Positions 10,062-64,000 of a stretch of DNA of 64,000 bases are shown piece after piece. A program made the translations under genes and the position numbers. The notes beneath the pieces are model-generated. The model saw nothing but the letters and a program-made list of their open reading frames with translations. It made no database searches and had not been told where the DNA came from. Location: NCBI GenBank assembly GCA_047495785.1, contig JBLDXI010000024.1, forward strand, positions 1,364,001 to 1,428,000, read 5' to 3'. Source of the stretch: Lepidodermella squamata. Its lineage: Eukaryota; Animalia; Gastrotricha. Numbering within the stretch: the stretch's first letter is position 1; each line of letters begins with the position of its first letter.

Positions 10062-10567
10062 TTAAGTGGACAATGGATGACCGCTCTTTGGATGAAATTT
10101 GTCTTTTATTGAAAGTTGTTGTCCCTGCAACTGAATAAAAACAACAATAGGACGATACACCGGAATAATTACCCGGAATTTTTGATCTTATAAGAATTAT
10201 GGAAATATATAGGCGTCCAGCTCAACATTGAATCGGAATCAGCCGGAATATAGATCAATATAGGATGGATAGCAAAACTCGCAAGTAAAGGGTATATGCA
10301 AATGAGCGTCCAAAATCACCCGCTAACCACCGTCCACCTTAATGCGAAATGATTAAAATTTTCAAAAATCAGGAAAAATTCATATAATAGCCAAAGTTTG
10401 CAGATCATCAACAAATTATGTTCCTCAATTTGATCTAAAACATGATTTTTTTTATAAATCCAACGCTGATTTTTTATCATCGGAAAACATGGTTTCTTCT
10501 AACGTCTAAGTTTACCCCTCGCTACCGAAAAAAAAATCATTTTTATTCCTGAAAACTCAATCACGAA

Positions 10568-16600: not shown

Positions 16601-17000
16601 TGAAGATTTAGAGACACCATTAGCGATTTCTCTAGCAGCAAATCGGAGCTCTAAATCTGACTTCAAACTCAACGACCGTCAAACTGCTACTGCCGAGCGA
16701 ATTCGCATGAAAAAGAAGAACAGCGTAACGAATTTCTTGCTGTCAAAGGTTGAGAAGGCTCAATTAGAGGCGGTTCAGCATCGCAGGCAGGTGAATATGG
16801 AAGAATGGTCGCAGGTTGCGCACTACCTCGACTTGGTTACGTTTTGCTTCTGCGGCTTTATGGCAGTTTTCATACCAATTCTGCTCTTCATTCCACTGGT
16901 TTATTTCGACGAAACTTGTAACAACAACGAGGGAAATGAACACAGCGCTCATCAAAGTGGAATGTACGCTGGAGGTACAACTACGACACAAACGGTTTAA
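13690..17000 (+). CDS. Cys-loop ligand-gated ion channel subunit (nAChR/5-HT3-like, non-alpha), 17 exons
   Basis: Spliced translation gives signal peptide, LLRKIFSTYDKEVMP, EWNDSRMSWNP, VWLPDI, Cys-loop C-ELKLPKFPFDVQT-C, FESW, KRKSMFY-TM1, TM2 DRIGFGTTNLLTLVVFQ, MPKSS, TM3, a long loop and EWSQVAHYLD-TM4. All 16 introns are GT-AG. Confidence 0.92.
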
Positions 17001-19359: not shown

Positions 19360-20279
19360 TAGCAAGTGAAATTTAAAAAATAACTATACTCGAAATGCCT
19401 ACGACACGGCTCAAATACGACGATTTTACAAGAAGCTCTTAGCTAAATTAGACAGAAAAGTAAATGAAGGTAAAATCTAGCCTATAATTTCTTGTCCTAT
19501 AATTGCCCATGACTTTTGAAAGGTCCCCTAGTTTCAGTAGATTATCACGCAACTGCTTTCAACTCTTTGAACGTGATTTCTACGAGTTTGCGTCACGTGC
19601 ATAAAAGCGATACCGAAAGGACTCCAAAAATATCATAGATTGCTTAAAATTAAGATTTAATTAGCTCACGCGTCTTTGATGTCCTCCGTTATTTCATTGA
19701 GTCATCTTTGATTGTCCAGTGTTGATAAAAATTAATAAAGCTTCCAAGGTATTTGGTCACTGGAAATCGGCGCGGCATTTAACAAGTATCGGACTTCACA
19801 GAAAAGGGCAATTATTTTTAAATTGACCATTGATGACAGATGAAAAGAGGGATGACAGGCCTTATAGTCTGAAAATGATAAATGGTTCCATCAATGCTTT
19901 TGAGTGAAATTTCTTTATCCATCGGTCATCATCACCATTACACACGAAAACCCTTGACCGCAGGGCTTGAAAGGTACATTTTTATCAAAATAAACAGCTT
20001 GACAAGTGCATTATTAATAAGTTTTTAACTGATCTTCGTCAGTTCATTCCGCACATCTACATGATGTAGAATGTAGAATATACAAGATACACATAAGATA
20101 CTGCACATAGTCAGTTTTTCTCATTGTTTTCTTTTCACTTTTACAATAATGTTGAGGTGTGAAGTGGCAGCGTGTGATCATTAATAGCTTTAAAGCTGTC
20201 TTGGCTTAAAAAGGCAATTTTCAAACAATGACATGCTTTTTATTATTTTCTCAAGCCTGCCTTTGATAACAAGTAAAAA

Positions 20280-20912
20280 ATGAGTGACCTCTACGAACCG
20301 TCCAACTACCTCAGCAAGTTCGAAGCACTCGTTAGGACAGTTATGTTGCGGCGATTTCTTACAAACGCTCGAATCGGTGGGGCTAGAATCGTACTGGAGA
20401 ATGGCTGCATTCAAAAATGGAAGGTTCTGGTCCTACCAAACAATCCACCTTATAACAAAGGCGCCTTTTGGGTGCAGATCGATTTCCCAGACGACTTCTT
20501 CTGGCGGAGGATAGCTCATTTTAGATTTGTGACCAGAATCTACCACCCAATGAGAAAGTTATGCATGTGTGGCACGAAATACCGGCGGCGTCTCAACGAA
20601 GATTCAACAAAAGCTGTCGATCCGCCAGATTTCAGCGATTTGAATGAGACCCTGCTCGATTTTATCGAGCATCCACCTGAAAAGTGGTGCCTGTACCGAA
20701 ATTGCGCAGTTTTCAACGAATACATCAACAATCACGACGAATTCAGGCGAAAAGCTGAATCTTTCACTATCGAAAACGCGGAGCCTCGACTACCGGAGAA
20801 ACTTCAAGAAAGATGCCGAGTTGTCATTTTATCAAACCTCAAATCAAGACCTGAAGAATCTTTGACTAGACTAGGCTTGCCATCTTCCATTCAACTTTAC
20901 TTACTAAGCTAA
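20280..20912 (+). CDS. UBE2L3/UbcH7-like E2 (UBC fold) with C-terminal SOCS box
   Basis: WKVLVLPNNPPYNKGAFWVQIDFP, FVTRIYHP and EYINNHDEFRRKAESFT parallel UBE2L3. The C-terminus KLQERCRVVI...LTRLGLPSSIQLYL fits the SOCS box consensus. Confidence 0.8.
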   Translation: MSDLYEPSNYLSKFEALVRTVMLRRFLTNARIGGARIVLENGCIQKWKVLVLPNNPPYNKGAFWVQIDFPDDFFWRRIAHFRFVTRIYHPMRKLCMCGTKYRRRLNEDSTKAVDPPDFSDLNETLLDFIEHPPEKWCLYRNCAVFNEYINNHDEFRRKAESFTIENAEPRLPEKLQERCRVVILSNLKSRPEESLTRLGLPSSIQLYLLS

Positions 20913-43495: not shown

Positions 43496-43624
43496 GGTGC
43501 GTAGCCTACCGCGAAGCCTTCTTCATCGCGATATTCGTGTACGATGTTATAGTCAGGCAGTACATCAGTACGGTTGTTGGCATTGTCGATTGCGATTTTC
43601 ACAGCTGGCGGGCATCCTATATGA
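43496..43624 (-). repeat. Inverted 129-bp copy of the GPCR 5' coding segment 44034-44162
   Basis: The reverse complement matches 44034-44162 with 2 mismatches (HIGCPPAVKIAIDNANNRTDVLPDYNIV...YAP). Confidence 0.9.
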
Positions 43625-47692: not shown

Positions 47693-48753
47693 CCCAGACC
47701 GGCACGAAATAAGCTGAAATACGCTGAAATAATTAAGCTGAAATAAGCTGGCAAATGATTTCAGTTGATTTCAGTTTAGCGTTTTTCCAGCATATTTCAG
47801 CTTATTTGTTTCAGCGTATGTCAGCTTAAAGCTATTTCAGCGTTTTTCAGCTTGTTATTTCAGCTCTTTCCAGACGTGGAAAATTTATTTCAGTTTATTT
47901 CAGCGCGTGGCGTCATGCTATTTCAGCGTATTTCAGCACTTTTCCGTCCATTTTTCATTTTTCATATAAAACATCAAAATCTTCAAAGTCGATAATTTCC
48001 TGAAAATTGATCACCATTCACATGATCAGAACGGTATAGACAAAATTTCTAAAAATCGAAATTTGAAATTGAAATTTCACCCACTGCAAAATTCGAACTA
48101 TTTAAATGATTAGCAAGAATCAAACCTGAGAGGGACATTAAAATATTAAAGTTTACACAATGGTGTTGTCATGAAAATAACTTACAAATTTCTTGATAAT
48201 TTTTTGATAATTTGATAATTTTATTGGATCGGGTCTTGAATTCAATGGCGAACTGACGAACAGTTGTATTTGCATATGCACACTTGTATTCTGAGGGTAA
48301 TTTAGCTCTTTTCAGCATGCAATAGTTGCTAACTGAAAGCTGCCAAACTGAATGCCCGATTATAATATAACATGTTAGTGTAATATTTCAGCAATTTCCA
48401 GCTAAAAATTGTTTTAGCTGAAATATGCTGAAATTCTGCGTTAAATAAACCGAAACTCAGGCTCTGCCAAGTCCTGGAAAACCATTTTGAATTTCGCGCA
48501 ATGCGTCGTACAGAATTTCAGCGTATTTCAGCTTGCCGATGTCGCCGCGTGCTCATTTCAGCGTATTTCAGCACAGTGCGTCGATGGATTGCAAAAAAGC
48601 ATGACTTAGCTAAAAATCTGCCGAAATGTGCGCAGCCCAGAAATCAGCTCCAGCGTATTTCAGCGGCGACGAACTCGCCATGCCTTATTTCAGCATATTT
48701 CAGCTGATGAAATCAGTTCCAGCACATTTCAGCTTATTTCGTGCCGGTCTGGG
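47693..48753. mobile_element. Non-autonomous TIR DNA element with subterminal repeats
   Basis: 28-bp TIR CCCAGACCGGCACGAAATAAGCTGAAAT with its exact reverse complement ending at 48753; many ATTTCAGC/GCTGAAAT motifs in both arms; no clear TSD; no real ORF. Confidence 0.8.
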
Positions 48754-49178
48754 ACTAGCTCTATGTTACATGCCGATCGACAGATTGCAACGGGCGATTA
48801 GAAGAAATGTCCATCGACGAGCTACCCAAGCGAGTCAGCTTGCCTTAACGCTTTTGAGGTCTTTAACTTGGACTGGGTTGAACAGCTGGCGATTTTCTAA
48901 CAGGAATATTTGGACTGATGGTGAGCTTGTGTTCACGCAGGTAATCATAAACCCGTGAACCCTATATACGATAGAGAATTGTCTTTTCTTCCATATAATT
49001 TGAGTTTTCATCGCTTCAGTCGTTTTTTTGGATATCCACGGCAGATCATATGTTTGTTTTCACGCGATGAGTATTGCCGGCATTTAATCAGGTGTTGTTT
49101 TGTAATTTCTCCCTATCATCATCTTCATTATTCTTCAATATATATTCTGCATTACTAGTAGTAAGGATGGGAACTTTG

Positions 49179-49344
49179 GATCAGTAATAGCAGTACGGCG
49201 ATTTTTACTATAGCCGTTTGGTATAAATATACGCAATTTGCGATCAGTAATGGCAGTACGGCGATTTTTACTATACCCGTTTGGTATAAATATACGCAAT
49301 TTGGGGATGAGTAATAGCAGTACGGCGATTTGTACTATAGCCGC
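49179..49344 (+). repeat. Subterminal tandem repeat, 63-64 bp unit, about 2.6 copies
   Basis: Units start at 49179, 49242 and 49306 (gatcagtaatagcagtacggcgatttttactatagccgtttggtataaatatacgcaatttg). Confidence 0.9.
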
Positions 49345-49609
49345 TTCTTGTCAATATACCTTCGTTTTAACCCACTGCTATGATTTCACCTAACTAAAAT
49401 AAACAAATCTTCGTTTTTTCACCTGTTATGAGCTAAACTAATCATTTTTACACTGCTTCTTTAGTGCAGCTGCAATAGAGCCCTTTTTCATTCACACAAA
49501 CACTTTTTATTAGTCTTAACGTTTCAAGCAATGAATTTATAGCTGGGATAAGTCTTATCAGTTTTTCTATTCATTTGTTCAGAGATTTGTAGCGGCTTGA
49601 TTGGAGGGG

Positions 49610-50113
49610 TTAACGTCCAGATGAACCGAATCCGTTATCGCCACGGGTCGAATTTGCTGCTAGAGCGTTTTTCAATGGCCCCGTTACCGTTACTGCAGAT
49701 TCTAAGCGACCATATTTTAAACACACCAACTGGGTAATACGGTCGCCTATTTTAATCTTGTAAGGTGTTTTGCTGTTGTTTGCAAGGCAGACTACGATTT
49801 TTCCGGTGTAGTCGGCGTCTTTAATTCATGAAAAATACAGATATTCATTAGTAATTTTCATTATTATTTGCTTCTTACCTATTACTCCAGCGACCGTATC
49901 GATTCCATGGTTGATGCTCATTCCTGATCGACTGAATAGTTGTCCATAATATCCTCGTGGTAAACAGATTTTAATATCAGTTTGAATCAGTCCCCTGGTT
50001 CCAGGTTGCAGTGTCGTCTCTTCTGCTGAATAGATGTCCCAACCCACAGAGCCTTTAGTATGCTTTGTCGGTTCTTTAGCTTTGTTACTTGTTAGCTCTA
50101 CCTTCAGCTTCAT
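49610..50113 (-). CDS. DUT: dUTPase, 2 exons (intron 49819-49878)
   Basis: Motifs GWDI, SRSG, GVI|DADYTG (spliced), GDRITQL, RGDNGFGSSG. Confidence 0.93.
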
Positions 50114-50547
50114 ATTTTATAATTTATATTGTTACTGAGGTTCGATTTTTATGTGAGCGGCTACCTCCTTTCAGGCATATTGTTTTTGTAATTCAATCTT
50201 CCTTAAAAATGCATTAGGGCCTTTAGCTCTGTTGACCCCTCAGTGCTGGCTTTAATGCTTTTCATCAAAGATTCTTGGTATTGTATACATCCTCCTTAAT
50301 TGCTGTCGGTAATTCAATAAGAAAACATCATGTCAATAAATCTTATACATCCTCCCTAATTAAACAATGCGATTTTTTACTTATCAAAATAAAAAGCAAT
50401 TAGGATTTTTTACCCTTTACGGTGTAATTACCTTAAACAATTCAAACAAAACATCTCCCTGTTTTTTCCTTTTATGGAAATATCACTCAGACTATTTAAG
50501 AGAGATGCTTCAAGAATACACTTAGCATATTTCTTGAAGCAAGCTGG

Positions 50548-51312
50548 ATGCATCCTAAAGTCTACCATTTCGGCATAGTCGGCAACATTGGGGCGTAAGT
50601 CTCATATACTCCACCGAATAGAATTCTATTTAAAGTCTCTTGTTTTAGCGGGAAATCAACCTTAATCGAGGGTCTCACTAATCTACCTTCACTCAACCGT
50701 AAACTTCAGGGATATACCGCGTGGCCAATTTGCGAGCCTGTTCATCGTTGGGAGTCCTTTACTGATGACGATAAAACTAACATTTTGAAAGATTACTATC
50801 AGATGAAAAATGCGTTCAACTTTCAAATTGTAGCCACGAGTGATATGTGCGGCCTTTATTCAGCCCCTAACCACAAACCTGAAATCTACGGGGCGCATAC
50901 TATCGTTCTGCATGATCGAACGCCCTTCTGTTCTAAAAACGTCTTTATCCCATGTGCGTATGCATCCAAGCGCATAAATTCTATCGAATATCACGCTCTC
51001 ATGAATTTGTATGATAATTTCGAGCCGAATTTTGTAAAAACTGAAGCTATTATTTACTTGCGCTCCTCTCCCCAAATAGCTTGTCAAAGAGCCGTAGCTA
51101 GAGCTCGGGGTTCTGAAATGCTATTATCACTGGATTATTTACGCCTCGTACATGAGTTTCATGAAAAAATGTGTACTGTTGAGACTACAAACAAATCCCT
51201 ACCATGTCCCGTGCTTGTTATCGACACTGATAATTTGAATGCCTCTGAGGTTCTAAAGCAAGCTTCTCAGTATGTTGCCTCTCTTATCACGCCTGTAATC
51301 TCTCAGACTTGA
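50548..51312 (+). CDS. Deoxynucleoside kinase (dNK/dCK/dGK/TK2 family), 2 exons (intron 50595-50648)
   Basis: Spliced P-loop GNIGA|GKST, EPVHRW, FQ, DRT, IIYLRSSP..RAVARARGSE, YLRLVHEFHE. Confidence 0.9.
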
Positions 51313-51322
51313 ATCCTCATTG

Positions 51323-51685
51323 ATGGATCCAACAAGACTTGTGCTCTCGAACAGCCAGATTTTAGACGCTGAATCTTTGCAATGTCCAATTTGTTTATCT
51401 ATCCTACTTAATCCTATTCAAACGCGCCCCTGTGGCCATTTATTTTGTACTAAATGTGTTCTCGCTATTTTTCAAAATTCAGCTCGAACAGTATGTTGCT
51501 GTCCACTTTGCCGCGAATCATTAACAGGGAAAGATTTCGTTAAACCCCCTGTAATTTTATCGAACATTATCTCGAATTTGATTTACAAATGCCAATATTC
51601 TGATAAAGGCTGTCCCATTACTCTAACTTATGACCTCATTTTTGGGCATGAAAAGTTATGCCAATATAAAGAACCCATCCCTTAA
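51323..51685 (+). CDS. C3HC4 RING finger protein with TRAF/SIAH-type zinc finger (putative E3 ligase)
   Basis: CPIC...PCGHLFCTKC...CPLCR followed by CQYSDKGC...HEKLCQY. Confidence 0.88.
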   Translation: MDPTRLVLSNSQILDAESLQCPICLSILLNPIQTRPCGHLFCTKCVLAIFQNSARTVCCCPLCRESLTGKDFVKPPVILSNIISNLIYKCQYSDKGCPITLTYDLIFGHEKLCQYKEPIP

Positions 51686-51727
51686 AGTTTTACATTCTTA
51701 TTTCATTAGATTTAATTTTCAATAATC

Positions 51728-52249
51728 ATGGCTGAGGCGATAGTAGAATCTGCTAACCAGACAGTCAATCATCACATGTCTAGTAACTTGGTCATTCAAC
51801 AGCATCCTCAGGATTCTAATCTCATCTACATAATGACTGATCGCAAAGATAAGAACGATAAGCCTAAAAAACTCGCCTTTAGACAAGACGAATTTCTTAG
51901 CCAGTTCGTTCCTTATTTTCGACCGCCGAATGATGCTTGGGTTGCTCAGGCTCAACTTGCCCTGCTATCTCACAACACAGGCTTTAAATTTTCGATGCAT
52001 GAATGCAAAATTGAAGTCTGTGTCTTTGTGCCATCATTTTCACCGATTCTTATAGATATACGCAGGTTTTATCTGGATGCTAAAGGTATTTACTTCAAAT
52101 TTACAGTAATAGCAATCTTTTTATGATTTAACTTTTTAGGAAATAAACAACCCTCAAGACAAGGAGTCTCTCTTGATGCAGCTCAGTTTCAAGACCTTGC
52201 AACTGGGGTGTTAACTGTTGCAGCGATGATTGAAACAGCCAATGAATAA
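51728..52249 (+). CDS. PC4/Sub1-like ssDNA-binding protein, 2 exons (intron 52086-52139)
   Basis: Spliced LIDIRRFYLDAKG|NKQPSRQGVSLDAAQFQDL parallels the PC4 core (IDIREYW...KPGRKGISL..EQW..L). Confidence 0.82.
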
Positions 52250-52435
52250 GCTAACACAAAACTTGACTAAAATGACTTACTGAATATTTATTTCAATCTA
52301 TCCTTGTAATAAAGTTTTACCTCTTCCCAAATTCGATCAATTTTAAATTTTTAATCTTAGATTGTTATGGATAACTATAGTTTACAATACTCATTTATTC
52401 GAAGTAATCGCCTGATTCATTCTACAAAATTCAAA

Positions 52436-55400
52436 ATGTTTTCTGTGGAGTACTTCATTCAGCCCGTAACATCCGACTTTGCCTCAACCTACATCAACAG
52501 ATATGGCCAATCTTCTAGTTCGCTTGGGCCGATGATTCAATTGTCTGGTGGCGCTGATGAACCTCGACTGGATAATATTCGATCATTTGTGCAGAACGTA
52601 CCAGCCGACCAGGTGGCTAATATTGATTTGGAGACCCGCTTCAATATTCTGGCCAACTTCCTGTTCGATATTGTTGTAAATATCCATCGTGATTTACCTG
52701 TGAATTCCTTCTGCCGGCTAACACTGTACCACCCCGACTTGAAGATGCCTCTTAGCCTACCCTTCATGAAACGCGATCGGTTGCTGGAAATTTCAATTTT
52801 TGATCAACTGAGAAAAATATTACAGAGTAATGAAGAACTCTCATTTGCTGGTCGGTGGACAATTCGTCTCTGTGTCATTGATAACCCCAATGCAGATCTA
52901 GGTCAAATTGTTGGTGGTTCTCGGGCAGAGCGGGCTATAAACGAAACTTTGGACAAATTTTTTCTTCGCTCCAAATCGATCGTTAGAATCGGAGCGCGCA
53001 AGAATGAAACGAACAATCTTTGCATGGGCAGAGCTCTCATCACTGGAGTGGCTTTGGCTCACATGAAGGCGAATCCTACGGATCCATCTCTTCAAGCAAC
53101 CTTCAAATCGATACGTAGTACGCGAACCAATCGTCAATTTCGCGAAGCCACGGCGCTATATCAGAAAGCGGGCTTACCTCTCAACCTTCCAGCCTACAAT
53201 CTAGATGATCATTACTCAGCCCTGTGTTCGGCTATCGATCCTGAACATAATACTTACAGATTCGTAGTATACTCGTACGAATCACAGGATGTTATTAGGG
53301 AAATCCCAGAATTTGATCATCGCGTAAGCCTTGGGTTGCTTCCTGTTGTTCTACTGGTTTATCGCAACGACGTCTCTCAGCCCAACAGTCATCATTTTCA
53401 TGTCATTGCGAATCTCAACTTTATGAAGGCCACTCTTAGCAATGCACAACGAATATGCCCCACTTGCTTTCAGACGAAAACGAGTACGGCTGTGCACAGA
53501 TGCAAGTTGGCATGCTCTTCCTGCCGTAATTTTTACATGAAAAACCTGAATTTCACTTCTTTTATCATTAATATTATTTTAGGTGTATCAGGGAGCATTT
53601 GCCGTGTGATTTCCAACACAGACCAACAAAACTACACGCGGTGTCCGCAATGTCGTGCAGGTCTGATGTTTTTAACCTTTTCATTATTATTCAGCTCTTT
53701 TTATGTTTTTAGTTTTGTATAGCGAACGTTGTAAGCAAAACCACAAATGTGCTAAAAAGAATCCATGCTTTAAATGCGGGAGGAAATTTGTACATTTTCT
53801 CAAGCATGAGGCTATGTGTCCCGGGCGGCGCTGTCACATTTGTCAGGAGCCTTTGAAAGCCAGCGACGAAGAAAATGGCACACACTTCTGCTTCATGACT
53901 CCCTTGGTATACTCATTTTTTTCAGTCCAGCTTTTTTCAAAATACTGTGGTTGGTGTATTTTTAGCCCTTGAAACCGGCGAATAAACTGGAACGTTATCG
54001 TAACCTAGTTTTTTGGGACACTGAGACATTTTCGCCATCACTTGCTGATAACAACAATGAGTTCCAAGTATGCCTTATCGTTGCAAAGGTCGTATGCATA
54101 CCTCACTGCATCGAAGCGAGGATTCAGCGATGCCATTCTAGTTGTGGACTTCATATTTTTTATGGAAGTCGTCCTCTGGAGGATTTCGTAAACTGGGTGC
54201 TTCTACCTATGAATTACCAGTCGATTTATTTGGCTCACAACTCAGCCAATTTCGATTCCTTATTATTACTGAAAGAAATTCAAACACGATGTTCTAAAGT
54301 GAAGATTCTTCAAAGGCAGGGATCTCTACTATGCATTGATTTCAAACAACAAAAAATCAGATTTTTGGATTCATATCTCTTTTTTCAATGCAGATTAAGG
54401 TAGGTTACCTAAGAAACACTAAGAAACTACATTGCTTACAGGTATTTGTTCAACAACAGGGATTTACCAGCAACAATGGGAATCCCAGACAAGAAAACCT
54501 TCTTTCCTTACGTCTTATGCACTAAAGAAAAGTAAGTACATCATCAACTTCTTGAGCTATTGTGATTGAATTCGCTGTAATCCTTCGAGTTTCAATCTCG
54601 AATTCCCACAGCTGCCTAATATGATCTACTATGAGCCTGACAAAATGTCTCCTTCTGAAAGAGCAGAATTTCTAACTTTCTACAACGAAAACAAACTGAA
54701 ACGGTTCAGTGTTCGCCACACGTTACTGCAATACTGCATACAGGATTGTCTAGTTTTGGAAAAGGCGTCAATCAAATTTCGGGCGCTAATGCTGGAGTTG
54801 TGTTCTACTGATGCCTTTAAAGAATGCATCACACTAGCTTCTCTCACAAGCACATGCTTCCGCAAGCTGTTTCTTACGAAGGATACATTACCTGTCATCC
54901 CGACCGCTGGCTACTGTGGCAAGGATTCACACAGCAGGCTCTCGATAGCTTTTCTTCAATTTCTGATGGAGTCTGACCCTGAAACTTATGGTTCAATGAA
55001 ACACGCTCAGAACTCACGTCAAGAAGTTCGAATATCTATACCTGGCCACCGTTATCCTTATCGCGTCGACGGTTTTGTTGCACGTCGTGATAAAATTCCG
55101 AGTGAACCCGATCTGATTGTCGAGGTTCATGGTTGTGCTGTCCATGGCTGCTTGCAATGCTTTGAGGCCTCACAACTAAATTTTCTATCTGGACAACCAA
55201 ACGGCGTAGTTTACAAGCAAACCTTGGAACGTGAAGAGTTGTTTCGCTCGAATGGTTACATTCTTCAAAGCTTTTGGGAGCATGAAATTAGAGCTAGTTT
55301 CAAACAACACCCGAGAGCACAGGAGATTTATGATAATCTCACAATAGCTAATGTAATGGAGAGCCGTTCGTTTTTCTTTGGAGGTAACTGGAGGTTTTCC

Positions 55401-57222
55401 CTATTTAATCTTCGCGGGATTAAAACATCATGCCTACTTTTTAGGGCGGGTCGAAGCTTTTCGTTTAATGGCTATGATTGCCGAATCACACTCAACTTCA
55501 GGCGACCAAAATTTGGAAAAGATTGCTCAAATTTGTAAGGAAAGCGGGATGCAAACCAAGGACTTCTTATTTCCATCGCCCGATTATTCTATAATTTCCG
55601 CCGACTTCAACTCGTTATATCCAAGCTGTATGATGGATGGCTACTATGCAATAGGACCACCTAAAGTATCCACCTTGGATCTCAGATTAAACAACGAGAA
55701 ACTGCAGGAGATTTATTCAAAGGAATCTTTTTTTGGTGTCGTACAAGCACGCGTAAGCTCTTCGCATCTACATATCGTCTCCCTGCTTTCATCATCACCA
55801 CATTATTTTGCTAGGTATTAGCGCCGAAAAACATCTGGCTACCTGTACTCTGCTTTCGTAGTAAACAAAACAAGCTCGTGTTCTCATGTTGCTATGCTTG
55901 TTCGTCGACTGCAAATCCAAACTTGTGCGTTTCAAGCCGTGAATGCACCCATTCTGATTATGAAAGGTCCTGGATTGGTTCGTATTGCTCTGTGGAACTG
56001 AAGTACGCTACAGATGTTCATGGCTACAGATTGCTGGAAGTCTACGAGGTTAATAATTTTGTTTAGCCAACTCATGCATGGCTTCTATCAAGTTATTTTT
56101 TTTAGATATGGGAGTTCAAGAAGAGCAATACAATTTTCAGAGATTTCATTAAAAGATTCACCATTTTGAAGGCCGAATCCTCCGGCTGGCCGCCAAACTG
56201 TGCTACTAGTGAACAAAAAGCACAGTATTTGGAGCAATGGGAACGCATTGGTATAACGATTGATAGCACCAAGTTGGATAAAAAGAACCCTGGGTTACGC
56301 GCGATCGCCAAATTAGTTTTGAACAGCTTTTTTGGTCGATTTGCTATGAATTCTAATCTAGAGAGAACAGATTATATCAAATCCCCGTTTCTGCTTCAGC
56401 AAATGCTAAATAATCCAGCTTTGGAAATTGTGGATATTCAACCACTAGGCTTACTCATCAACTCTGATGATGTCTCTCGCTTGCGAATTGTAACACGGCC
56501 AACCAAAGATGCCGACGTTCCAAATGGATCCACCTCAGTTATAACAGCGGCCTTCGTAACAGCTAATGCTCGTGTGAAACTGGCTCGTGAGCTGTACCGA
56601 GTCGGCCCAAAAAGTGCTATCTACAGCGGTTAGAGAATAGCGCCGCTTATGCTACCAACATCTCTACGTTTTTTGTCTTTTGTTTTAGACACGGATTCAA
56701 TTTTTTGCCTTCAAGGGCCTGGAATTACTAAAATTGAGTTCACACCCGTTCTTGGCGGCTTGGCGGATCAGCTTGATACAGGGCAACGCATCATTGCAAT
56801 GGTTGTACTGGGCTGTAAGGCATATGCCCTACTTTTTGCTGACGGCAAAGCCAAGCTAATGTTAAAGGTAATTGCTACTTGTTGTTACGCCCTCTGTTTT
56901 TTATTATTTACGTCACGCGCAGGGAATACGTCAAAGTTTTCATTCACGCAGTCTTCTCGATTTTTTCTTGTTCATCAAGCATGTAATACAAAGTCTCCAC
57001 GATAACGAAACCAGCGGAAGCGGGGGCCGGGGTGATAACAACAAAAACAGCGTCATCGCTGAATTGGATCAGACTCAGTTTAAAAAAGTGCATACTCCGT
57101 TATCGGAAATTCATTGTGTTCATATAACAAAAAAGATTCGTTTAACCTATGATAAACGTTGGCTACGCCCCGGCGATGCTTCCTTTCTAACTTATCCACA
57201 TGGATATAGCGCTGATCAATGA
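52436..57222 (+). CDS. pPolB: Protein-primed family B DNA polymerase, about 11 exons
   Basis: ExoI FWDTET, ExoII AHNSANFD, FLDS, ExoIII YCIQD, VSR/endonuclease-like insert (VDGF..EVHGC..HGC..WEHE), FFGG|RVE, motif A DFNSLYP, motif B KLVLNSFFGRF, motif C YS|DTDS, K|GI, YDKR..TYPHGY. Introns: 53526-53582 (in frame, least certain), 53661-53712, 53907-53965, 54400-54459, 54532-54589, 55384-55444, 55753-55814, 56049-56105, 56629-56688, 56868-56922. Start at 52436 or 52367. Confidence 0.93.
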
Positions 57223-57229
57223 TCGATTA

Positions 57230-58381
57230 TTACATGAATAAACTCCAAAACCCTGTGCCAGCTTGAAACTTGTTGATTTTATTTATCTTACGCTGTGACG
57301 TTCTTCGGAAAAGTTTTCCAGGTGGTGATATTTGTGTTTGATCAGTCATAGAACGTGGCTTTCTACCGCGCTTTTGACCCTTCCGTGGCGTTGCCGCTGC
57401 AGTTGCTGCTCCAGCTAGCTCAATTTCCATCGGTTCAGCGGCAGCGGCTTCTTCTTGTCTTTCTGCTTGATTATCATCATTATCAGCACCATCTTGCAGC
57501 TCTTCACTATTGCTGCCGCTGCTGTCCTCATCGCCGCTAAACGAAGACGACCCTGCTGTTGTGTTGCTGTCTCGAGGGGCCTGGGGGGTGCGCGCGCGGG
57601 GGGTCCCTCCTCTCGTAGGCAGCTGCTCATCATTAGGCCGATCAACAACAACATCATCGTGGCTGAGGACGGTCGTGGCTGCAGCGCTAGAAGTCGATGA
57701 TGTTTGCGGGGCAGCGAATAGAAAATCCATTTGAAGATCATCAAATTCATAATTGCTGCTATTATCAGTTGAAGGTCGTGGCGTTGTATTAGGTGAAAAC
57801 TGCTGCTGAAAGCCGCCAATACCCGAATCTCTGTTATAGTTGTTATAGCTAGGCCCGGCCGCTTGACCAAAATTACTAGATGTTAATTTAGTAGGTTGTT
57901 GGCGCGCAAGTTGTTGTTGCTGCTGTTTTTTTGGAGGAGGAGGAGGAGGAGGAGAAGAAGCAGAAGGAAGCGGCGGCGGCGGCAGCGGAGGAGGAGGAGG
58001 AGGAGGAGGAGGAGGAGGAGGAGGAGAGCGCGGCCTCGATTCTGCTCGATCTGCTGGTGCAGGCGACATTGGAATAGCGGCTGGCGGCTGGCTACTGCCT
58101 TGTAAAACTACCAGCTTCTTCAAATTCATAATCTCATGCATGAGTTCGTTACGTTTTCGCACTAAATCGGCTGAATTATCACTACTACTAGCGTTGTTTA
58201 TCACATCCCGGTCTAAAGACTGTAATAGCTGCACTAGTTTGAAAAGCAGAGGATTGCTCAGCAATGTTTTAGCAGCAATCAAGTCGCTCGCGTTTGGTTG
58301 TTGTTGTTGTTGTTGTGCTGGAGTTGGCCCAGGTGTCGCAAGTGGAACAATAGTCATGCGCTGTGCATAGTTTCGCTGCAT
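57230..58381 (-). CDS. Polinton accessory protein, polyproline/low-complexity
   Basis: 383-aa ORF: coiled-coil-like N-terminus, poly-Pro encoded by (CCT)n at about 57933-58026, acidic segment, basic NLS-like tail. Confidence 0.7.
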   Translation of the reverse strand: MQRNYAQRMTIVPLATPGPTPAQQQQQQPNASDLIAAKTLLSNPLLFKLVQLLQSLDRDVINNASSSDNSADLVRKRNELMHEIMNLKKLVVLQGSSQPPAAIPMSPAPADRAESRPRSPPPPPPPPPPPPPLPPPPLPSASSPPPPPPPKKQQQQQLARQQPTKLTSSNFGQAAGPSYNNYNRDSGIGGFQQQFSPNTTPRPSTDNSSNYEFDDLQMDFLFAAPQTSSTSSAAATTVLSHDDVVVDRPNDEQLPTRGGTPRARTPQAPRDSNTTAGSSSFSGDEDSSGSNSEELQDGADNDDNQAERQEEAAAAEPMEIELAGAATAAATPRKGQKRGRKPRSMTDQTQISPPGKLFRRTSQRKINKINKFQAGTGFWSLFM

Positions 58382-58384
58382 AGT

Positions 58385-58798
58385 TTAGATTCGAAGAAGC
58401 CTCTTGAGTTCTGAATAATCAAACTTTAGCCTGGGTGCAAAGGATTTCAATACAGTGGGTAAAACTGCAAAAAAGGAAGCTTTCGAAGCCTTATTTCGCC
58501 TATTGTTCTTGTTGCTATTAAGGCAGTGTCGAATAAAAACTTGCCGGTTGTGCTCGACCAAATTGACACCTTTTTGTTTCAATTTAGCCAAATCAGGGGC
58601 CAGAACAGTACTAGTGCTGCGAAGCCAATACAAGGCGCAACGGCTAAGAAATCGTATAAGGCTAACAGAGCTAGTTGCTAAAATATCAGCACGCTGACCG
58701 GGGTGAGCATGCAATAACCATTTCAATGCAAGAAAAAGCCGCCGTTTTTTATCAAGACTGAACGATGGTGACGTTGCTGAGGTAATAACTTTATTCAT
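58385..58798 (-). CDS. Small basic Polinton protein
   Basis: LKWLLHAHPGQRADILATSSVSLIRFLSRCALYWL resembles the small basic ORF commonly found next to the Polinton ATPase; tightly packed on the same strand as its neighbours. Confidence 0.6.
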   Translation of the reverse strand: MNKVITSATSPSFSLDKKRRLFLALKWLLHAHPGQRADILATSSVSLIRFLSRCALYWLRSTSTVLAPDLAKLKQKGVNLVEHNRQVFIRHCLNSNKNNRRNKASKASFFAVLPTVLKSFAPRLKFDYSELKRLLRI

Positions 58799-58849
58799 TT
58801 AACGACGAAAATTGGGCGGCAATGAATCCTTTTATAATAGTACATATCA

Positions 58850-59693
58850 TCATTTCTTTGAGACTAAAATGTAAGCGTAACCAGGTTTACTACCGAAGCC
58901 ATTGCTCGAACGAATGCGGAGATTATCCGGAGTAGTTGCACAATTATCCAGTAGCAGTGGCGTGTGAGATGATTCAGCAGTTGCTTGGTTCAACGCTTCA
59001 AGAAGGCCTCGCCAGCCCATTGGGGAACGCCGTTGTGCATATGATCTAAAGCTTGCAGAGTCGGAAATGCAGCGAAAATAGAATAAATAGTTTGCATTTT
59101 GCTATAGAATAGAAAATACATAGAAGAAAAAACAATAATTTTCTGAGGCAAACCAGAATTTCCCTGCTATTTTTTGCTCGAGTAAACAAAACTTGTTGAA
59201 GGAGAATGGTTGTCGTATTCAAGTGCCGCCCTCCTAAAAAAAGCTGTACCAGTGTTTCGTCTTCAGTTAATAGGCGATACACGTCATCAAATACTAGGCA
59301 ACAGCGGGGCTGCGTCTCGTTATTGTCGTTGATATAATTTTTTAAGCTGAAGCTATCGCTACTGCTGTTTTTTGTGTCTGCTAAATTTACGAATTCAACT
59401 TTAATTTTGTGAACTTGCAATGCAGCATCGGCTATGTCATTGTAAATGGGTTGGAAAGTAGAATAAAAATAGACAATTCTCTCAAAAGGAAGTTCAAAAC
59501 TGAATGCATCCTGTAGGATTTGAAGCACCAGACTTGTTTTACCGCTCCCCGACCTGAAGATGAGTAAATTACACTAAAATATATTGACTTTTATTTCCAT
59601 CGTCACTTACGGCCCAACAATGAGAATTGTGCTAGGGTGAACAAAAGGCAAAGCTTCATTTATGTTGCCAGGGCAGCAGCGCAAATCACTCAT
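58850..59693 (-). CDS. A32/FtsK-like DNA packaging ATPase, 3 exons (introns 59554-59610, 59102-59153)
   Basis: HPSTILIVGP|SGSGKT Walker A (spliced), LVFDD Walker B, GGRHLN, LLQQ, REIL|QNANYLFYF. Confidence 0.92.
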
Positions 59694-59696
59694 CCT

Positions 59697-60260
59697 TTAT
59701 AATCTAACGTTACAGGGTTTTATTCTTTCAAGTGGTCTCATAGATAGACCATAGTGGGAATATAATGTATTAAATTTATGATAAAGTACACAGTCTTTTA
59801 TAAGCAAATTGTTCTTTGATCCAAGCTGATCAAAATGCCTCAAAATTTGGTGCATGTCTTTACCTCGCGCTCGAAGCATGCTGTAATATAGAGCCCATAA
59901 GCCGCAGATTTGTGAAAAAACATGCTGGTAAGACCTATTGCAATGAATGTACGGCACTTCTGTTTGGCTATTCGCTTTCAAAAAGTTGTCGATATAGAGG
60001 TTATGATAGGAAGGGGAAAGGTTAAGGCTATCGAAAAACTCACAGGGCTCATCAGGATGCTGTGCGCTGTGAACAAACAGTGTGACCCAGTGCTTTCCTG
60101 TAGAATTGTATACATTTCCTGTGTTACAGATAATCAATTGTGGATTATTTTTCACAATAGGAAGCTGCTGTGGTAGCTGATCAGCGGCTACAACAAAAAT
60201 GTCAAACTTTTTTAGTACTGGATCAATCCGGATGAAATCTTCCAATTCATTGTTGTACAT
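59697..60260 (-). CDS. Adenain-like cysteine protease (capsid maturation)
   Basis: ICNT...GKHWV, EFFDS, YQ....ICGLW provide the catalytic H/D/Q/C. Confidence 0.92.
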   Translation of the reverse strand: MYNNELEDFIRIDPVLKKFDIFVVAADQLPQQLPIVKNNPQLIICNTGNVYNSTGKHWVTLFVHSAQHPDEPCEFFDSLNLSPSYHNLYIDNFLKANSQTEVPYIHCNRSYQHVFSQICGLWALYYSMLRARGKDMHQILRHFDQLGSKNNLLIKDCVLYHKFNTLYSHYGLSMRPLERIKPCNVRL

Positions 60261-60270
60261 GAAAAACTGC

Positions 60271-61761
60271 TTAAGAATCAACAATTACGTCACGCGTTCG
60301 TGTGATCTTAAAAAATTTGAATTTTAAGGCAATTTTAATTTTATGAAAAAAGATGATACCTCAAAAACTGAATCAGTTTCAGTTAATACTAACAGCTGAG
60401 TAACAATTGTTGTTTGAACAGCAAAACTCAACTCTACTCTGCAGGTACCTGTGCGTATAACTGAGTAATTTTGCAACGAGGAGTTGCGCGATAAATCGAA
60501 ACCAAAAATTGTGAAGCCATTAATAAACTGATCCATAGTTAACGTAGATGCCTTGAAAGGGTTATCTGGGTTGATAGCATTGAGAAGCTCCAAATAGACT
60601 CTGGTGACATCTCCATTTGCAAAATCCATTTCCAAGGGAGCTGTTGAGTGATGTAGTTCATTGCCCAAATAAATCGATATTCGGGATAGCTGGCTGTGTA
60701 ATGCATTCAATGGATTTTTACCCGCCGTTCCATTCAGGGCGGAATCTTCAAAAAAACAGAAAAACATACGCCTTGGAAGCTTACCATTAATACATTGTGG
60801 TATCTGTTAAACCATTAGAGTTTTAAAAATTGACTTAGAAACGCGCGATGAGCAAACTTACACTGTAACTCAAAACACTACTTGGTATGTGAAAAAGCCT
60901 TGTTCGAACTCTCATTATAGGATATTTGGCGTTAGTTTTTTCCAGCGCACGCGTATGAGCAATCACTATGTCCGGCGACACAACAACAGCCCGGGCAATA
61001 ATTTTTGCAGATTCAATGACGATTGAGTGAGGATCAGCTGTGCTCGGCCCAACCAAAGCAAAATTGTTAGATGCCCTATAGAGCTTGATGCGGACTTCAA
61101 CATTAGGTAGAAGTAGCCTATTACACAGCATAGGATCTGCAAACAGGCGTCCCAGGGTGCACACAGATTTCCCGCCCTGAACAATTTCCAACCGTTTTTT
61201 AAATCCCTCGTTTGAATTGTCAAAATTATCCAGTTTTTTAGCTGTATCAGGATACCAAAATTGTGTCTGTAATATCGTGTTTTTTGCATCAGTATTATGA
61301 GACAAAAGCGTTGAAATATAGGCCCGATAAGCGTATAATGAATTTTGTTCACTTAAAAGTTGCCCATTTAGTGAAATCTCGCATGTTTTGAACATTGTGT
61401 GGTGGGCTAAACAAAGCGGGGCTTTTTGTAAATTTGTAGCCGAAAGACTAGCCTTATACTCGTTGTATGCATCGTCAGCTTCGCCAGCATTTTTCTTCCG
61501 AGCTTCAGAAGGGGTTCTAACTACTTTCCACTTGAGCATCAGTTGCATGCGTGACAGACACAAATAATCATTGTACGGGCCGATTTGAAACTCAATCAGG
61601 TTCGGTGAACTATTAAGAGGGGCAATTGGGTAAACATCTATACTTATTTGGTTTTCTTCAGCAAGCTGTGAAGGCGGTACAGTAAATAAATCTAAATCTG
61701 AAGATAATACTATTGAAGAGGCTGAGGCTGGGTGAACAAAATTATCTCCAAAGCCTTCCAT
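60271..61761 (-). CDS. Major capsid protein (double jelly-roll, Polinton PY), 3 exons (introns 60804-60861, 60307-60359)
   Basis: SDLDLFTVPPSQ, IEFQI, YAYRAYISTLL, LLPNVEVRIKL, AKYPI, GKLPRR, NPLN, FGFDLS, terminal E|ITRTRDV. Confidence 0.9.
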
Positions 61762-61794
61762 TACAAATTTGAAGAATCAAACGCAGCAATGGGC

Positions 61795-62337
61795 TCAAGA
61801 CGCTTCAAATAGCACTGATTTAGTTGTTGCGCGTCTTTTCCTTTTATAAGCCTTTCTTTTTGTAGTAGAAGCACGGCGCCTACGTTTTGCAGTCACACTA
61901 CTAGTTTTACTAGGGCCACGACGACGGCGCCTTTTACGGCCACCTCCACCGCCTTGATGTTGCTTCAAAGCCGTTTCAGCAATATCCTTAGCCATGTTTA
62001 AGGCGCCTGAAGTGCCATGACGCTTAAGGGATTCGGTAAAACTAGGTCTAGCGCCCTCAGGTTGTTGCATATCACCTAATATTTTTTGGCCAGTAGATAA
62101 TGCTTGTTGAAAAATAGACGGAGCAATTACTGGGAAGAAATTTCTGAAAAAGGCACCTAATATATTTCCTATTCCCTGACCCCTATAATGATATGGAAAT
62201 TGAATTGTTGCCCCACGGAAATGGTCCAGGTTAGCACCCGCTCCAGCTCCATAGCCTGCTATCAGCGGGGAGGAGTGTTGGCGGAGAAAAAACTGCTGGT
62301 ACTTGTCAACGTTTTGGTTAGAATAAGCTAGGGGCAT
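61795..62337 (-). CDS. Polinton core-like protein (GxG-rich amphipathic N-terminus, Arg/Lys-rich tail)
   Basis: YRGQGIGNILGAFFRNFFP conserved-type motif; QGGGG followed by a protamine-like tail RKRRRR...KRKRR. Confidence 0.75.
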   Translation of the reverse strand: MPLAYSNQNVDKYQQFFLRQHSSPLIAGYGAGAGANLDHFRGATIQFPYHYRGQGIGNILGAFFRNFFPVIAPSIFQQALSTGQKILGDMQQPEGARPSFTESLKRHGTSGALNMAKDIAETALKQHQGGGGGRKRRRRRGPSKTSSVTAKRRRRASTTKRKAYKRKRRATTKSVLFEAS

Positions 62338-62375
62338 CTTCGGTAATATTAATAATTAGAACTCAGCCACTTATA

Positions 62376-63596
62376 TTAATATAAGGCTCCGGTTTTTCGG
62401 CGAATATGAAGTAGCAATACAACTTTGCTACCATCCACAAAATCGATCAATGCCCCGTTATCGCGGCGGATTTGAACTTGAATTGAATCTATAAAATTGG
62501 CTTTTAAAGGTAAATATAGGCCCGAGTTATAAATCACTGTAAAATGTGATGACAAGTCTGAATTTGCCGTAGCAGAAGCCATCGTAGAATAGGTTATCAT
62601 TCGAAGGAGGCTAGCTTGGCAATCTCCAACAAAAACATCCGCTGCAACTGAGCAGTAAATGAACAGTGAGTTATTGCCATAATTCAACTGAATGTTGTAT
62701 TGAGCTGTAGCACTTTCTTCATAGCATGCATAAATAAAGGCAGGCGGTAAATCATTATCTTTGGTGATTACTGTTTGCTCAGAAAAATCAAAGTGCTGTG
62801 CTGAATTTACGCCTTCTTGATTTTCTACCGCCGCTGTCTCATTATTTGCATCCTCCTTAAGTTTTGGTCTGCTAGAAAGCCTAACAATCCCAACTGAGTT
62901 GAATAAAATGTGTGGATTTTCACGAATTTGGTGGCTCATATTCCACGCATATGCCAAGGCATACGTTGACTTTATATCAAAAGTGGAAACTTCATTAAAT
63001 TCTGGCTCGTCATTTTTTGGGGCCTTGGGAAAAATGAAAACTCCAGACGGTGTATTCTGTTCTATTGGAGACACAAAACCTAAGAGGCCAGCAGAATCTG
63101 AAGGTATAAACATAGAATATGGCCATTTACAGGTAATTTTAGTTTTTTTGTTGACTGAATCATAATGAGCAAAAATAGAGCCATTACTACTTGAGATGGA
63201 TATTTTTTCATTAAAGTGATCGATTAGTTTGGTTATATTCGCAAAATATTCACCTCCGAAATTTACTTTGTTAATAAAGCCAGTTTCCCATGGATTGTTG
63301 AAACTTTTCATCCGATGTGGCAAAGAGCCAGGATTTGTTAAATAATTAGCAATAATGTCGTTTTTAAAAGATTTCAGCCAGTTACAATCAAGCACATAGA
63401 CTGTATGACGATCAATGCTACTCCACCTAACAGGAATTGTAGCCTCAAGTAGGGCTACTTCATAAGCACGGCAATCGGGTACGCAAATTGGGACAGGGAG
63501 AGCAACTTGATAATCCGACGGAGTATTCGCCGGATGTTGAGAATATGAGGCATTCGAGGGTAAATAAATAAAGAAGTCCTCCTGGATGCTAAGCAT
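62376..63596 (-). CDS. Minor capsid/penton protein (single jelly-roll, Polinton PX)
   Basis: FFIYLPSNAS..HPANTPSDYQVALP..YEVALLE at the N-terminus; LFIYCSV..VGD..LLR..YLPL..IDSIQVQIRRDNG..LLLHIRR at the C-terminus. Confidence 0.88.
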   Translation of the reverse strand: MLSIQEDFFIYLPSNASYSQHPANTPSDYQVALPVPICVPDCRAYEVALLEATIPVRWSSIDRHTVYVLDCNWLKSFKNDIIANYLTNPGSLPHRMKSFNNPWETGFINKVNFGGEYFANITKLIDHFNEKISISSSNGSIFAHYDSVNKKTKITCKWPYSMFIPSDSAGLLGFVSPIEQNTPSGVFIFPKAPKNDEPEFNEVSTFDIKSTYALAYAWNMSHQIRENPHILFNSVGIVRLSSRPKLKEDANNETAAVENQEGVNSAQHFDFSEQTVITKDNDLPPAFIYACYEESATAQYNIQLNYGNNSLFIYCSVAADVFVGDCQASLLRMITYSTMASATANSDLSSHFTVIYNSGLYLPLKANFIDSIQVQIRRDNGALIDFVDGSKVVLLLHIRRKTGALY

Positions 63597-63792
63597 TTGT
63601 TATGTTATCCTTATCTATCTTTTCTAAAGTAAGGATTGCGCTGTTGCCAAAAGGGGGGAGCTTAGTTTTGAATAAATAGTTTGAAATTTCTATAAGCCAA
63701 ACGGTTATTAGAAGGAAAAAAATGTAGGCCCCTACACGCACAGATGGCTTTTGTAGGAAAGCTAAGAGTGGAGTCGTAGGAACTCTATTCAT
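63589..63792 (-). CDS. Small single-TM Polinton protein
   Basis: 67 aa with hydrophobic VGAYIFFLLITVWLI; its ATG overlaps the integrase stop and its own stop overlaps the penton start. Confidence 0.55.
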   Translation of the reverse strand: MNRVPTTPLLAFLQKPSVRVGAYIFFLLITVWLIEISNYLFKTKLPPFGNSAILTLEKIDKDNITNA

Positions 63793-64000
63793 GAGGCCAA
63801 GGTTTTGATCTCGTTTGCATCAATCCAACTAGCGGCTTCAATCGGCCAGTTTTGCCATTTCACAAGAGCCTGTTTCTTGCCATTTATAGTGCGATGCTTC
63901 AGAACTTTTTCTATTAAATATGTTTCTTGCGGATGTGCTATCTGAAGCTGCCAATCGTAAAAACTACCTTGAATACGCTTATTCAGAGTATCACGGAGAT
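63789..64000 (-). CDS. Retroviral-like integrase, C-terminal chromodomain part (5' portion outside the window)
   Basis: LRDTLNKRIQGSFYDWQLQ...YLIEKVLKHRTINGKKQALVKWQNWPIEAASWI-stop, the typical Polinton integrase tail with a chromodomain. Confidence 0.85.
   Translation of the reverse strand, partial: LRDTLNKRIQGSFYDWQLQIAHPQETYLIEKVLKHRTINGKKQALVKWQNWPIEAASWIDANEIKTLAS

Follow-up and report, generated by a model that had tools for sequence, protein, structure and literature searches.

Why should introns lie within the catalytic motifs of the genes of a mobile element? This question is raised by a Polinton/Maverick-type element of the gastrotrich Lepidodermella squamata that begins inside, and runs past the end of, the 64,000 nt stretch of DNA analyzed here (the window). 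The first-pass annotation had hand-picked seven introns, assigned them to catalytic or otherwise invariant motifs, and proposed either that they persist there because only exact loss is tolerated or that splicing acts as an on/off switch. We tested all 17 introns of the element, which are listed together with its genes in Table 1.

Table 1. Features of the element, with positions in the window; percentiles refer to conservation at the intron site.
Feature	Position	Strand	Length, phase	Percentile	Evidence and remarks
Polinton/Maverick-type element	49157..64000	.			left end 49157; continues past window end
Three 63-nt tandem repeats, terminal region	49172..49361	.			
dUTPase, 1 intron	49610..50113	-			Pfam PF00692 on both exons
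dUTPase motif III intron	49819..49878	-	60 nt, 1	0.98	X2 joint
Deoxynucleoside kinase (dNK), 1 intron	50548..51312	+			Pfam PF01712 E=3e-21; PDB dNK matches
dNK P-loop intron	50595..50648	+	54 nt, 2	0.96	X2 and X3 joints
RING-finger ORF	51323..51685	+			Pfam zf-C3HC4; no intron seen
PC4-like gene (name weakly supported), 1 intron	51728..52249	+			Pfam PF02229 E=0.33, exon 2 only
PC4-like intron	52086..52139	+	54 nt, 1		X2 and X3 joints
Protein-primed DNA polymerase B (PolB) with Vsr-like insert, 10 introns	52367..57222	+	1424 codons		Pfam PF03175 on 4 exon frames
PolB intron 1	53526..53582	+	57 nt, 1	0.35	X2 joint
PolB intron 2	53661..53712	+	52 nt, 1	0.76	X2 joint
PolB intron 3	53907..53965	+	59 nt, 0	0.21	X2 joint
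PolB intron 4, exonuclease block	54400..54459	+	60 nt, 2	0.85	X2 joint
PolB intron 5	54532..54589	+	58 nt, 2	0.68	X2 joint
PolB intron 6, FFG/GR motif	55384..55444	+	61 nt, 1	0.99	X2 joint
PolB intron 7	55753..55814	+	62 nt, 0	0.84	X2 joint
PolB intron 8, conserved block	56049..56105	+	57 nt, 0	0.93	X2 and X3 joints
PolB intron 9, motif C	56629..56688	+	60 nt, 1	1.00	X2 and X3 joints
PolB intron 10, K/G motif	56868..56922	+	55 nt, 0	0.95	X2 and X3 joints
Proline-rich ORF	57230..58381	-	383 aa		no family; no intron seen
ORF	58385..58798	-	137 aa		no family; no intron seen; poly-T loose end at 58438
A32-type packaging ATPase, 2 introns	58850..59693	-			Pfam PF04665 E=3e-7
ATPase intron 2	59102..59153	-	52 nt, 0	0.77-0.80	X2 joint
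ATPase intron 1, Walker A, predicted	59554..59610	-	57 nt, 2	0.82 (15 homologs) or 0.94 (48 homologs)	no listed joint
Maturation protease (likely)	59697..60260	-			Pfam Peptidase_C48 E=0.034, weak; no intron seen
Major capsid protein (likely; name inferred), 2 introns	60271..61761	-			no Pfam match
Capsid intron 2	60307..60359	-	53 nt, 0	0.81	X2 joint
Capsid intron 1, predicted	60804..60861	-	58 nt, 0	0.53	X2 piece ends at 60803
Basic ORF, presumably core-protein-like	61795..62337	-	180 aa		no Pfam match; no intron seen
ORF, by position presumably minor-capsid-like	62376..63596	-	406 aa		open frame; no Pfam match
Chromodomain-bearing gene end	63789..64000	-			Pfam PF00385 E=4.5e-8; cut at window end

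The element, its genes and their introns

At the left end of the element, contigs of run X1, which is DNA-like, depart from the flank at 49154/49156, probably reflecting empty sites, and join other DNA before 49157. At 49233/49296, contigs of X1, X2 and X3 (the latter from a separate study) switch to a related repeat that is likely the opposite terminus. We take AGTAGT to be a typical Polinton terminus. The X1 depth of 1500-3700 on the element, compared with about 225 at 49137, is not a copy number and hints at many element copies. X2 is probably an RNA run, because poly-T loose ends occur at 49345 and 58438 and because its GT..AG joints are missing from X1; it is treated as RNA below. Its lack of cover over about 62417-63100 carries no evidential weight.

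PolB matches Polinton polymerases with a blastp E-value of 1e-116, the ATPase has homologs in 10 PolB-bearing loci, and the capsid gene matches 436-444 aa ORFs of Polinton-like loci (blastp E=2e-63). As to the retroviral-like integrase, the window holds only a chromodomain tail, likely that of the integrase gene, the rest of which lies past 64000. Exon queries identified no close relatives (0 of 535 candidates), and neither did scans of viral contigs. A phage search with the kinase gave one weak match, and the PC4-like gene had no PDB or Atlas match. In the passages covered of studies on vertebrate Mavericks (PMC8097293), nematode Mavericks (10.1101/2022.07.12.499685) and the Vsr-type pPolB2 (10.1101/2023.08.22.554363), these animal elements have in common with the one described here a protein-primed PolB with a Vsr-like insert, an A32-type ATPase, likely protease and capsid genes, terminal repeats and insertion polymorphism. 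However, the core genes are called intronless in the same parts of these studies, whereas the PolB, ATPase and capsid genes of this element hold 14 introns, 12 of them with splice joints.

Altogether, six genes contain 17 introns of 52-62 nt, ten of them in PolB. All 17 start with GT, end with AG, have an A+T content of 0.58-0.83 and carry the pyrimidine-rich 3' end of U2-type spliceosomal introns. Splice joints were observed for 15 of the 17 in X2, for five of these also in X3, and for none in X1; with X2 taken as RNA, these 15 introns are present in DNA and removed in RNA. The remaining two, at 59554-59610 and 60804-60861, are predicted. All ten PolB introns are absent from a single X2 contig, 4731 nt in length. 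The boundaries of the seven introns singled out by the first-pass annotation were confirmed, as each starts with GT and ends with AG exactly, and excision keeps the reading frames open. Six of them (in the dUTPase, dNK and PC4-like genes and three in PolB) are skipped by X2 contigs, and four of these six (dNK, PC4-like, 56629-56688 and 56868-56922) are skipped in X3 as well, but no joint among those listed spans the Walker A intron, and one unspliced X2 contig reaches 44 nt into it. The unspliced forms of the seven indeed run into a stop within 1-51 codons, but this is a generic property: in 46 of the 51 intron-by-phase combinations, the frame would be broken or a stop would be present. The sole intron that is in frame and stop-free, PolB intron 1, lies in a poorly conserved stretch (n=1).

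An introner origin was rejected, given that there is no repeated intron family and that end redundancy amounts to only 0-3 nt. Inteins and group I/II introns were rejected in view of the length of 52-62 nt, the mostly stop-bearing sequences, the GT..AG ends and the removal at the RNA level. Pairwise likeness among the 17 introns was not above that of shuffled controls (top score 21, shuffled median 22), which suggests age. Six ORFs totaling 1413 codons contain no intron (p=0.0007), a gene-level contrast that is post hoc and for which RNA covers part of the sequence; the first 386 codons of PolB and its Vsr-like insert also contain none. For a host gene at 13627-17000, a simple gene model gave 19 introns, 13 of them of 45-62 nt; applied to PolB, the same model recovered 8 of the 10 introns and made 12 wrong calls, and a similarity in size between host and element introns is only roughly supported.

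Introns and conserved protein blocks

The introns favor conserved protein blocks more than expected by chance. In alignments with homologs, the mean conservation percentile of all 17 sites was 0.77 (p=3e-5), and 0.68 when well-aligned sequence alone was considered (p=0.005). Because intronless relatives of these genes exist, conservation could be measured free of any influence that an intron has on its surroundings, and the bias was still seen. The homologs are remote: identity is about 26% for PolB, the dUTPase and dNK sets are bacterial, and the capsid alignment has 10 rows, about half of them fragments. The bias, which was measured on the genes of the element, might be host-wide. It is a block-scale tendency and not a rule: the top tenth of conservation holds 6 of the 17 introns (p=0.005), the other 11 lie outside, and three introns in zinc-finger regions as well as the PC4-like intron are outside invariant motifs. 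Thus, the claim that the introns sit in catalytic or invariant motifs survived the comparison with random positions as a whole-set excess over chance, but does not hold for every intron. It was not confirmed for the intron said to split the PC4 core (52086-52139): in an alignment with 21 bacterial proteins of the PC4 family, which align poorly, its site is gapped and variable, and the name PC4 is itself weak.

The signal was unchanged after matching for phase and split residue, for the four flanking bases or for flank GC content (well-aligned p=0.0007-0.005); splice context, glycine bias and GC content are therefore insufficient as explanations. The PC4-like intron was kept in the tests of 17 introns and in the matched tests, and was omitted from those that follow; dropping it makes the result stronger. 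With the remaining 16 introns, all 14 settings of window and metric gave well-aligned p-values of 0.047-0.00015, the signal peaked at ±3 to ±8 residues, and a circular-shift null gave p=4e-4, while single-residue tests were weak (p about 0.04-0.05). For the exonuclease and polymerase core of PolB alone, with 7 introns, p was 0.003; PolB alone, in well-aligned sequence, was borderline (p=0.05 at ±3; p=0.25 at the single-residue level). The ten introns that had not been picked initially, a subset biased low by construction, showed a weak shift (well-aligned mean 0.49-0.68, p=0.03-0.57). The conserved block around PolB intron 8 had been overlooked in the initial selection.

Persistence, gain or regulation

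The explanation that we prefer, and to which we would give about an even chance, is that motif introns persist because only exact loss is tolerated there. A lineage long resident in one type of host, and using the spliceosome of that host, would acquire introns singly, with the position in the protein mattering little. In variable stretches, an intron could disappear through an in-frame deletion that is imprecise, become part of the coding frame, or go when the stretch is replaced, while in an invariant motif a working enzyme would remain only after base-exact removal. Exact, cDNA-mediated loss would be rare, because the part of the element within the window has no reverse transcriptase gene. 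Surviving introns would accumulate in motifs much like inteins, although without a homing enzyme, and splicing would be needed by every interrupted gene and yet be constitutive rather than a motif-specific switch. The same retention mechanism is stated for inteins as well as group I introns within the passages covered of Swithers et al. (PMC2814812). The positional bias is consistent with persistence by exact loss only, as initially proposed, but neither a loss event nor a deletion scar was seen, and we infer this mechanism from the positions.

In a distant Polinton, represented by the loci L080 and L023 (96% alike and counted as one family), PolB has one predicted intron of 90 nt in motif B, where the PolB of the window has none; its percentile of 0.99 in an independent relative counts towards survival bias. 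Insertions or gaps of at least 13 residues occurred in 49 of 90 related loci, and inspection of the DNA of four loci revealed a GT..AG intron in these two only; L038 and L069 looked like frameshifts. A related ATPase (P0123) contains a 51-nt Walker A insert, likely an intron, 4 nt from that in the window, and such a second, non-identical site speaks against survival bias, since targeted gain accounts for it no less well. Further introns may be marked by P0127 and the end of P0123, which are seen as truncations only. Element-specific insertions were listed as candidates for exonised former introns, and a 19-aa capsid insertion was judged by eye not to be intron-like; of 122 PolB proteins screened for read-through introns, two gave cysteine-rich rows, neither convincing.

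That the relatives' introns in motif B and, likely, Walker A lie at other bases would also fit a rather unlikely scenario in which motif DNA is preferentially cut or invaded, for example by Vsr/HNH homing-type nucleases, and repair leaves a spliceable insert that may shield the site. Vsr-type domains are described for Polinton polymerases in the covered part of 10.1101/2023.08.22.554363, in line with the insert in the window's PolB. However, many nucleases would be needed for the six motifs, which differ and are spread over four enzymes, there is no common flanking sequence or intron family, and most introns are outside the top conservation tenth. It is improbable, in our estimate, that the motif introns serve as a shield that alters motif DNA without changing the protein and so blocks homing-type nucleases, such as the Vsr/HNH enzymes of rival Polintons, or sequence-guided attack, with lineages converging on motifs at slightly different bases. 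Likewise improbable is a host-wide or general intron trait with nothing specific to Polintons, such as a tendency of phase-1 introns to fall in glycines, or exon contexts that favor splicing. In favor of it, an exon G precedes 11 of the 17 introns and AG precedes eight, and Endo et al., a study cited in PMC1800838, reportedly found in 2002 that phase-1 introns prefer conserved sites. Yet the matched controls leave the signal in place, and spliceosomal introns in cellular genes have no such preference according to the covered passages of PMC2814812. Chance combined with analysis choices (17 points, distant alignments, several tests) is quite improbable: the single-residue tests are weak, particularly for PolB, the result depends on PC4 in the direction noted above, and introns of one element may be non-independent, but the census derives from read joints and not from motif recognition, all 14 settings agree in direction, and the independent element carries its intron at percentile 0.99.

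A regulated on/off switch in the style of the P element third intron, with motif placement making the off state safe, appears very unlikely. The X2 contig that keeps part of the Walker A intron, the spliced joint of which is not listed, is the sole lead for regulation, but contigs cannot measure retention, and this one may stem from pre-mRNA, from transcription that reads through from the upstream gene, or from DNA. Moreover, fifteen introns appear spliced, and all ten of PolB are gone together in one contig. Retention truncates the protein at nearly any position, so that a switch does not predict placement in motifs, and we do not favor this part of the first-pass annotation. It is hardly credible that the accessory genes for dUTPase, kinase and PC4 were captured from the host together with their introns. 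In human DGUOK, too, an intron interrupts the P-loop region; it lies 8 nt before the codon of Lys51, presumably the P-loop Lys, compared with 4 nt before that Lys in the dNK of the element, and on this numbering the two sites would be 4 nt apart. Nematode Mavericks do have intron-bearing cargo genes (10.1101/2022.07.12.499685, in the part covered); still, capture would account for at most 3 of the 17 introns and leave the 14 in PolB, ATPase and capsid unexplained.

Known systems and implications

Inteins and group I introns share with the introns of the element the preference for conserved blocks and the proposed retention logic (PMC2814812), but the latter are 52-62 nt GT-AG introns without room for an ORF or a homing enzyme; in that source, the conserved-site pattern is reported for inteins, not for ordinary introns. 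Dinoflagellate eupolintoviral introners are likewise intron-type insertions within Polinton-like elements (PMC12166617). However, they form repeated transposon families, with about 25% in coding regions, whereas the introns described here are unrelated to one another and reside in spliced core genes; the covered passages hold no motif analysis of introners. The Drosophila P element (PMC7776569, PMC4647562) is also a DNA transposon that needs host splicing, but its third intron is regulated, whereas in the present element only one intron is associated with an unspliced contig. In the literature searched, no description of motif-biased spliceosomal introns in Polintons was found. Because descriptions of Polinton core genes, and searches for them, assume uninterrupted ORFs, spliced lineages such as this one are missed or called degraded. 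Polintons are a clean system for addressing a long-standing question, namely, whether intron position reflects biased gain or biased loss.

The Polinton element and the splicing of its introns

The gene set of the Polinton/Maverick-type element comprises a dUTPase, a deoxynucleoside kinase (dNK), a RING protein, a PC4-like protein, a protein-primed PolB and a packaging ATPase; protease and capsid genes are likely part of it as well, and a chromodomain tail near the end of the window is probably the end of the integrase. The left end was set by contigs from the DNA-like public sequencing run X1: some exit the flank at positions 49154 and 49156, and another attaches other DNA before 49157. Thus, the insertion is likely polymorphic, with the family present at more than one site.

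Features of the element and of the rest of the window
Position (nt)	Feature	Details
9553-10065	Inverted arms	171 nt each, 99% complementary, spaced 171 nt
13627-17000	Host gene	Many predicted introns of 45-62 nt; presumably resembles a ligand-gated ion channel subunit, a family label without Pfam support
17017-46530	Array of class C GPCR-like receptor genes	At least six genes, mainly long single ORFs; Pfam 7tm_3 and ANF_receptor matches on one copy; such arrays make the host appear animal-like
20277-20912	Single ORF	Ubiquitin-conjugating domain and SOCS box
43496-43624	Inverted copy of 44034-44162	98%; inside the GPCR-like array
47693-48753	MITE-like stretch	About 1.06 kb; 37-nt inverted ends, many ATTTCAGC-type repeats; immediately left of the element
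49157-64000	Polinton/Maverick-type element	Continues beyond the window end
49610-52249	Accessory block	dUTPase, dNK, RING finger, PC4-like; adjoins the left end
50739-51813	X2 contig	Bridges adjacent genes
53526-53582	PolB intron 1	Sole in-frame, stop-free intron; retained alone, adds 19 residues in the zinc-finger region
53907-53965	PolB intron 3	
57458	Differing base	Only one listed across the element
59922-60697	X2 contig	Bridges adjacent genes

Four public runs were aligned to the element, and three of them were aligned again to its right part. In X2, which is likely RNA, contigs carry poly-T loose ends, and 15 short GT..AG segments are skipped. Run X3, from a separate study, skips five segments, all among these 15, and X1 contigs skip none of them. 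A single X2 contig of 4731 nt (52466-57777) lacks all ten PolB introns. The full census amounts to 17 introns, including two predicted ones, all of 52-62 nt: one each in the dUTPase, dNK and PC4-like genes, ten in PolB, and two each in the ATPase and capsid genes.

The first-pass annotation had picked seven of these introns, and all seven intervals are indeed bounded by GT..AG at exactly the ends it had assigned. Splice joints bear out six of them; for the seventh, in the Walker A motif of the ATPase, no joint is among those listed (two of the 17 joints are not displayed), and an X2 contig (59466-59597) retains 44 nt of it. No other intron combines an unspliced piece with the lack of a joint among those listed.

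Intron positions and sequence conservation

The seven introns are a selected subset, so that only a test of the whole set is informative on positional bias. Column conservation was scored on homologs only, with the window's own protein excluded, using 72 PolB homologs (retained from 122, with less than 55% mutual identity), 34 dUTPases, 18 dNKs, 21 PC4-family proteins, 10 capsid rows, and 15 ATPases, later enlarged to 48. When each intron site was ranked by conservation, the mean percentile of all 17 introns was 0.77 (p=3e-5), and 0.68 (p=0.005) within well-aligned sequence; the top conservation tenth holds six of the 17 (p=0.005). The well-aligned p values stayed at 0.0007-0.005 when the null was matched for phase plus split residue, for the four bases flanking the site, or for flank GC. 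PC4 could not be aligned reliably, and leaving it out favours the result; without it, all 14 combinations of window and metric yielded well-aligned p values from 0.047 to 0.00015, with the signal peaking at ±3 to ±8 residues, and a circular-shift null gave p=4e-4.

For PolB alone, scoring in a ±3-residue window gave p=0.0008 with the whole ORF as background, 0.008 from residue 370 onward and 0.05 within well-aligned sequence; the corresponding single-residue values were 0.02, 0.08 and 0.25. The seven introns of the PolB catalytic core alone gave p=0.003. The ten introns outside the initial selection show only a mild shift (well-aligned p 0.03-0.57). Two of the PolB introns, 1 and 3, lie in variable sequence. 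Thus, the positional bias is real, but it is a tendency toward conserved blocks and not a rule of splitting catalytic residues. The earlier observation that the introns fall in catalytic motifs holds for the most part, but picking seven out of 17 overstated it; the PC4 core, one of the examples, found no support.

Related elements and previous descriptions

Among 90 Polinton-like loci surveyed, two members of one family (L080, a 17-kb metagenome contig, and L023, 96% alike) each have one predicted PolB intron. In L080, this is a predicted 90-nt GT..AG intron (L080:7582-7671) inside the motif B tryptophan codon, a site at percentile 0.99 where the window PolB has no intron. Of the 49 loci flagged for an insertion or gap, four were inspected at the DNA level. 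The related ATPase P0123 (44% identity) clusters with the window ATPase in a quickly built tree. Its Walker A motif contains an insert of 17 residues, 4 nt upstream of the intron site in the window; the ends of the insert resemble a read-through 51-nt intron, and judged from the protein sequence the insert may be an unspliced one.

Phase-1 introns in conserved glycines were reportedly described by Endo et al. in 2002. ORFs of intact vertebrate Mavericks are described as intronless (PMC8097293), and a Maverick from a nematode combines core genes free of introns with cargo genes that carry them (10.1101/2022.07.12.499685). Dinoflagellate Polinton-like elements carry introners, chiefly outside coding regions (PMC12166617), and some protist Polinton-like elements carry group I introns (PMC12220804). 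A term search of the main text of the adintovirus paper returned no mention of spliced genes (PMC8502044). As far as found in the literature covered, which included few subscription journals and no supplements, neither spliced Polinton core genes nor motif-biased spliceosomal introns in such genes have been described.

Origin of the bias

The 17 introns show no likeness to one another. Because of this, a recent introner burst was rejected, although the element copies are nearly identical, and we infer that the introns are old. On the most probable reading, the bias would be the residue of unequal intron loss. In variable sequence, an intron could be lost through a deletion that keeps the frame without being exact, through absorption, or when the segment is replaced, whereas within a motif exact removal alone would be viable. 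PMC2814812 argues for such retention in the case of both inteins and group I introns; the logic is alike, but the version for Polinton introns lacks the homing step. Targeted intron gain, whether or not the introns also bring a shielding benefit, would agree with the Vsr-like insert and with the near-miss intron positions of the relatives, but it requires many targets and appears unlikely. A host-wide effect is a rather improbable source of the bias, and chance a quite improbable one.

The suggestion of the first-pass annotation that splicing acts as an on/off switch gains no support and is very improbable: in 46 of the 51 intron-by-phase combinations a retained intron would disrupt the frame or bring in a stop, so that placement in a motif is unnecessary for silencing a gene. 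Inheritance from host genes would cover three introns at most. We take Lys51 of human DGUOK to be the P-loop Lys; the human intron lies 8 nt before it, as opposed to 4 nt before the P-loop Lys for the dNK intron of the window, and such inheritance is extremely improbable. The human positions are c.142+1 for the first intron (PMC8132052) and c.151 for Lys51 (PMC5663597). Retention through unequal loss, also proposed in the initial annotation, is plausible; since no loss event was seen, we regard the case for it as evenly balanced. The Polinton itself is real, expressed and intron-rich, and its introns are measurably biased toward conserved blocks.
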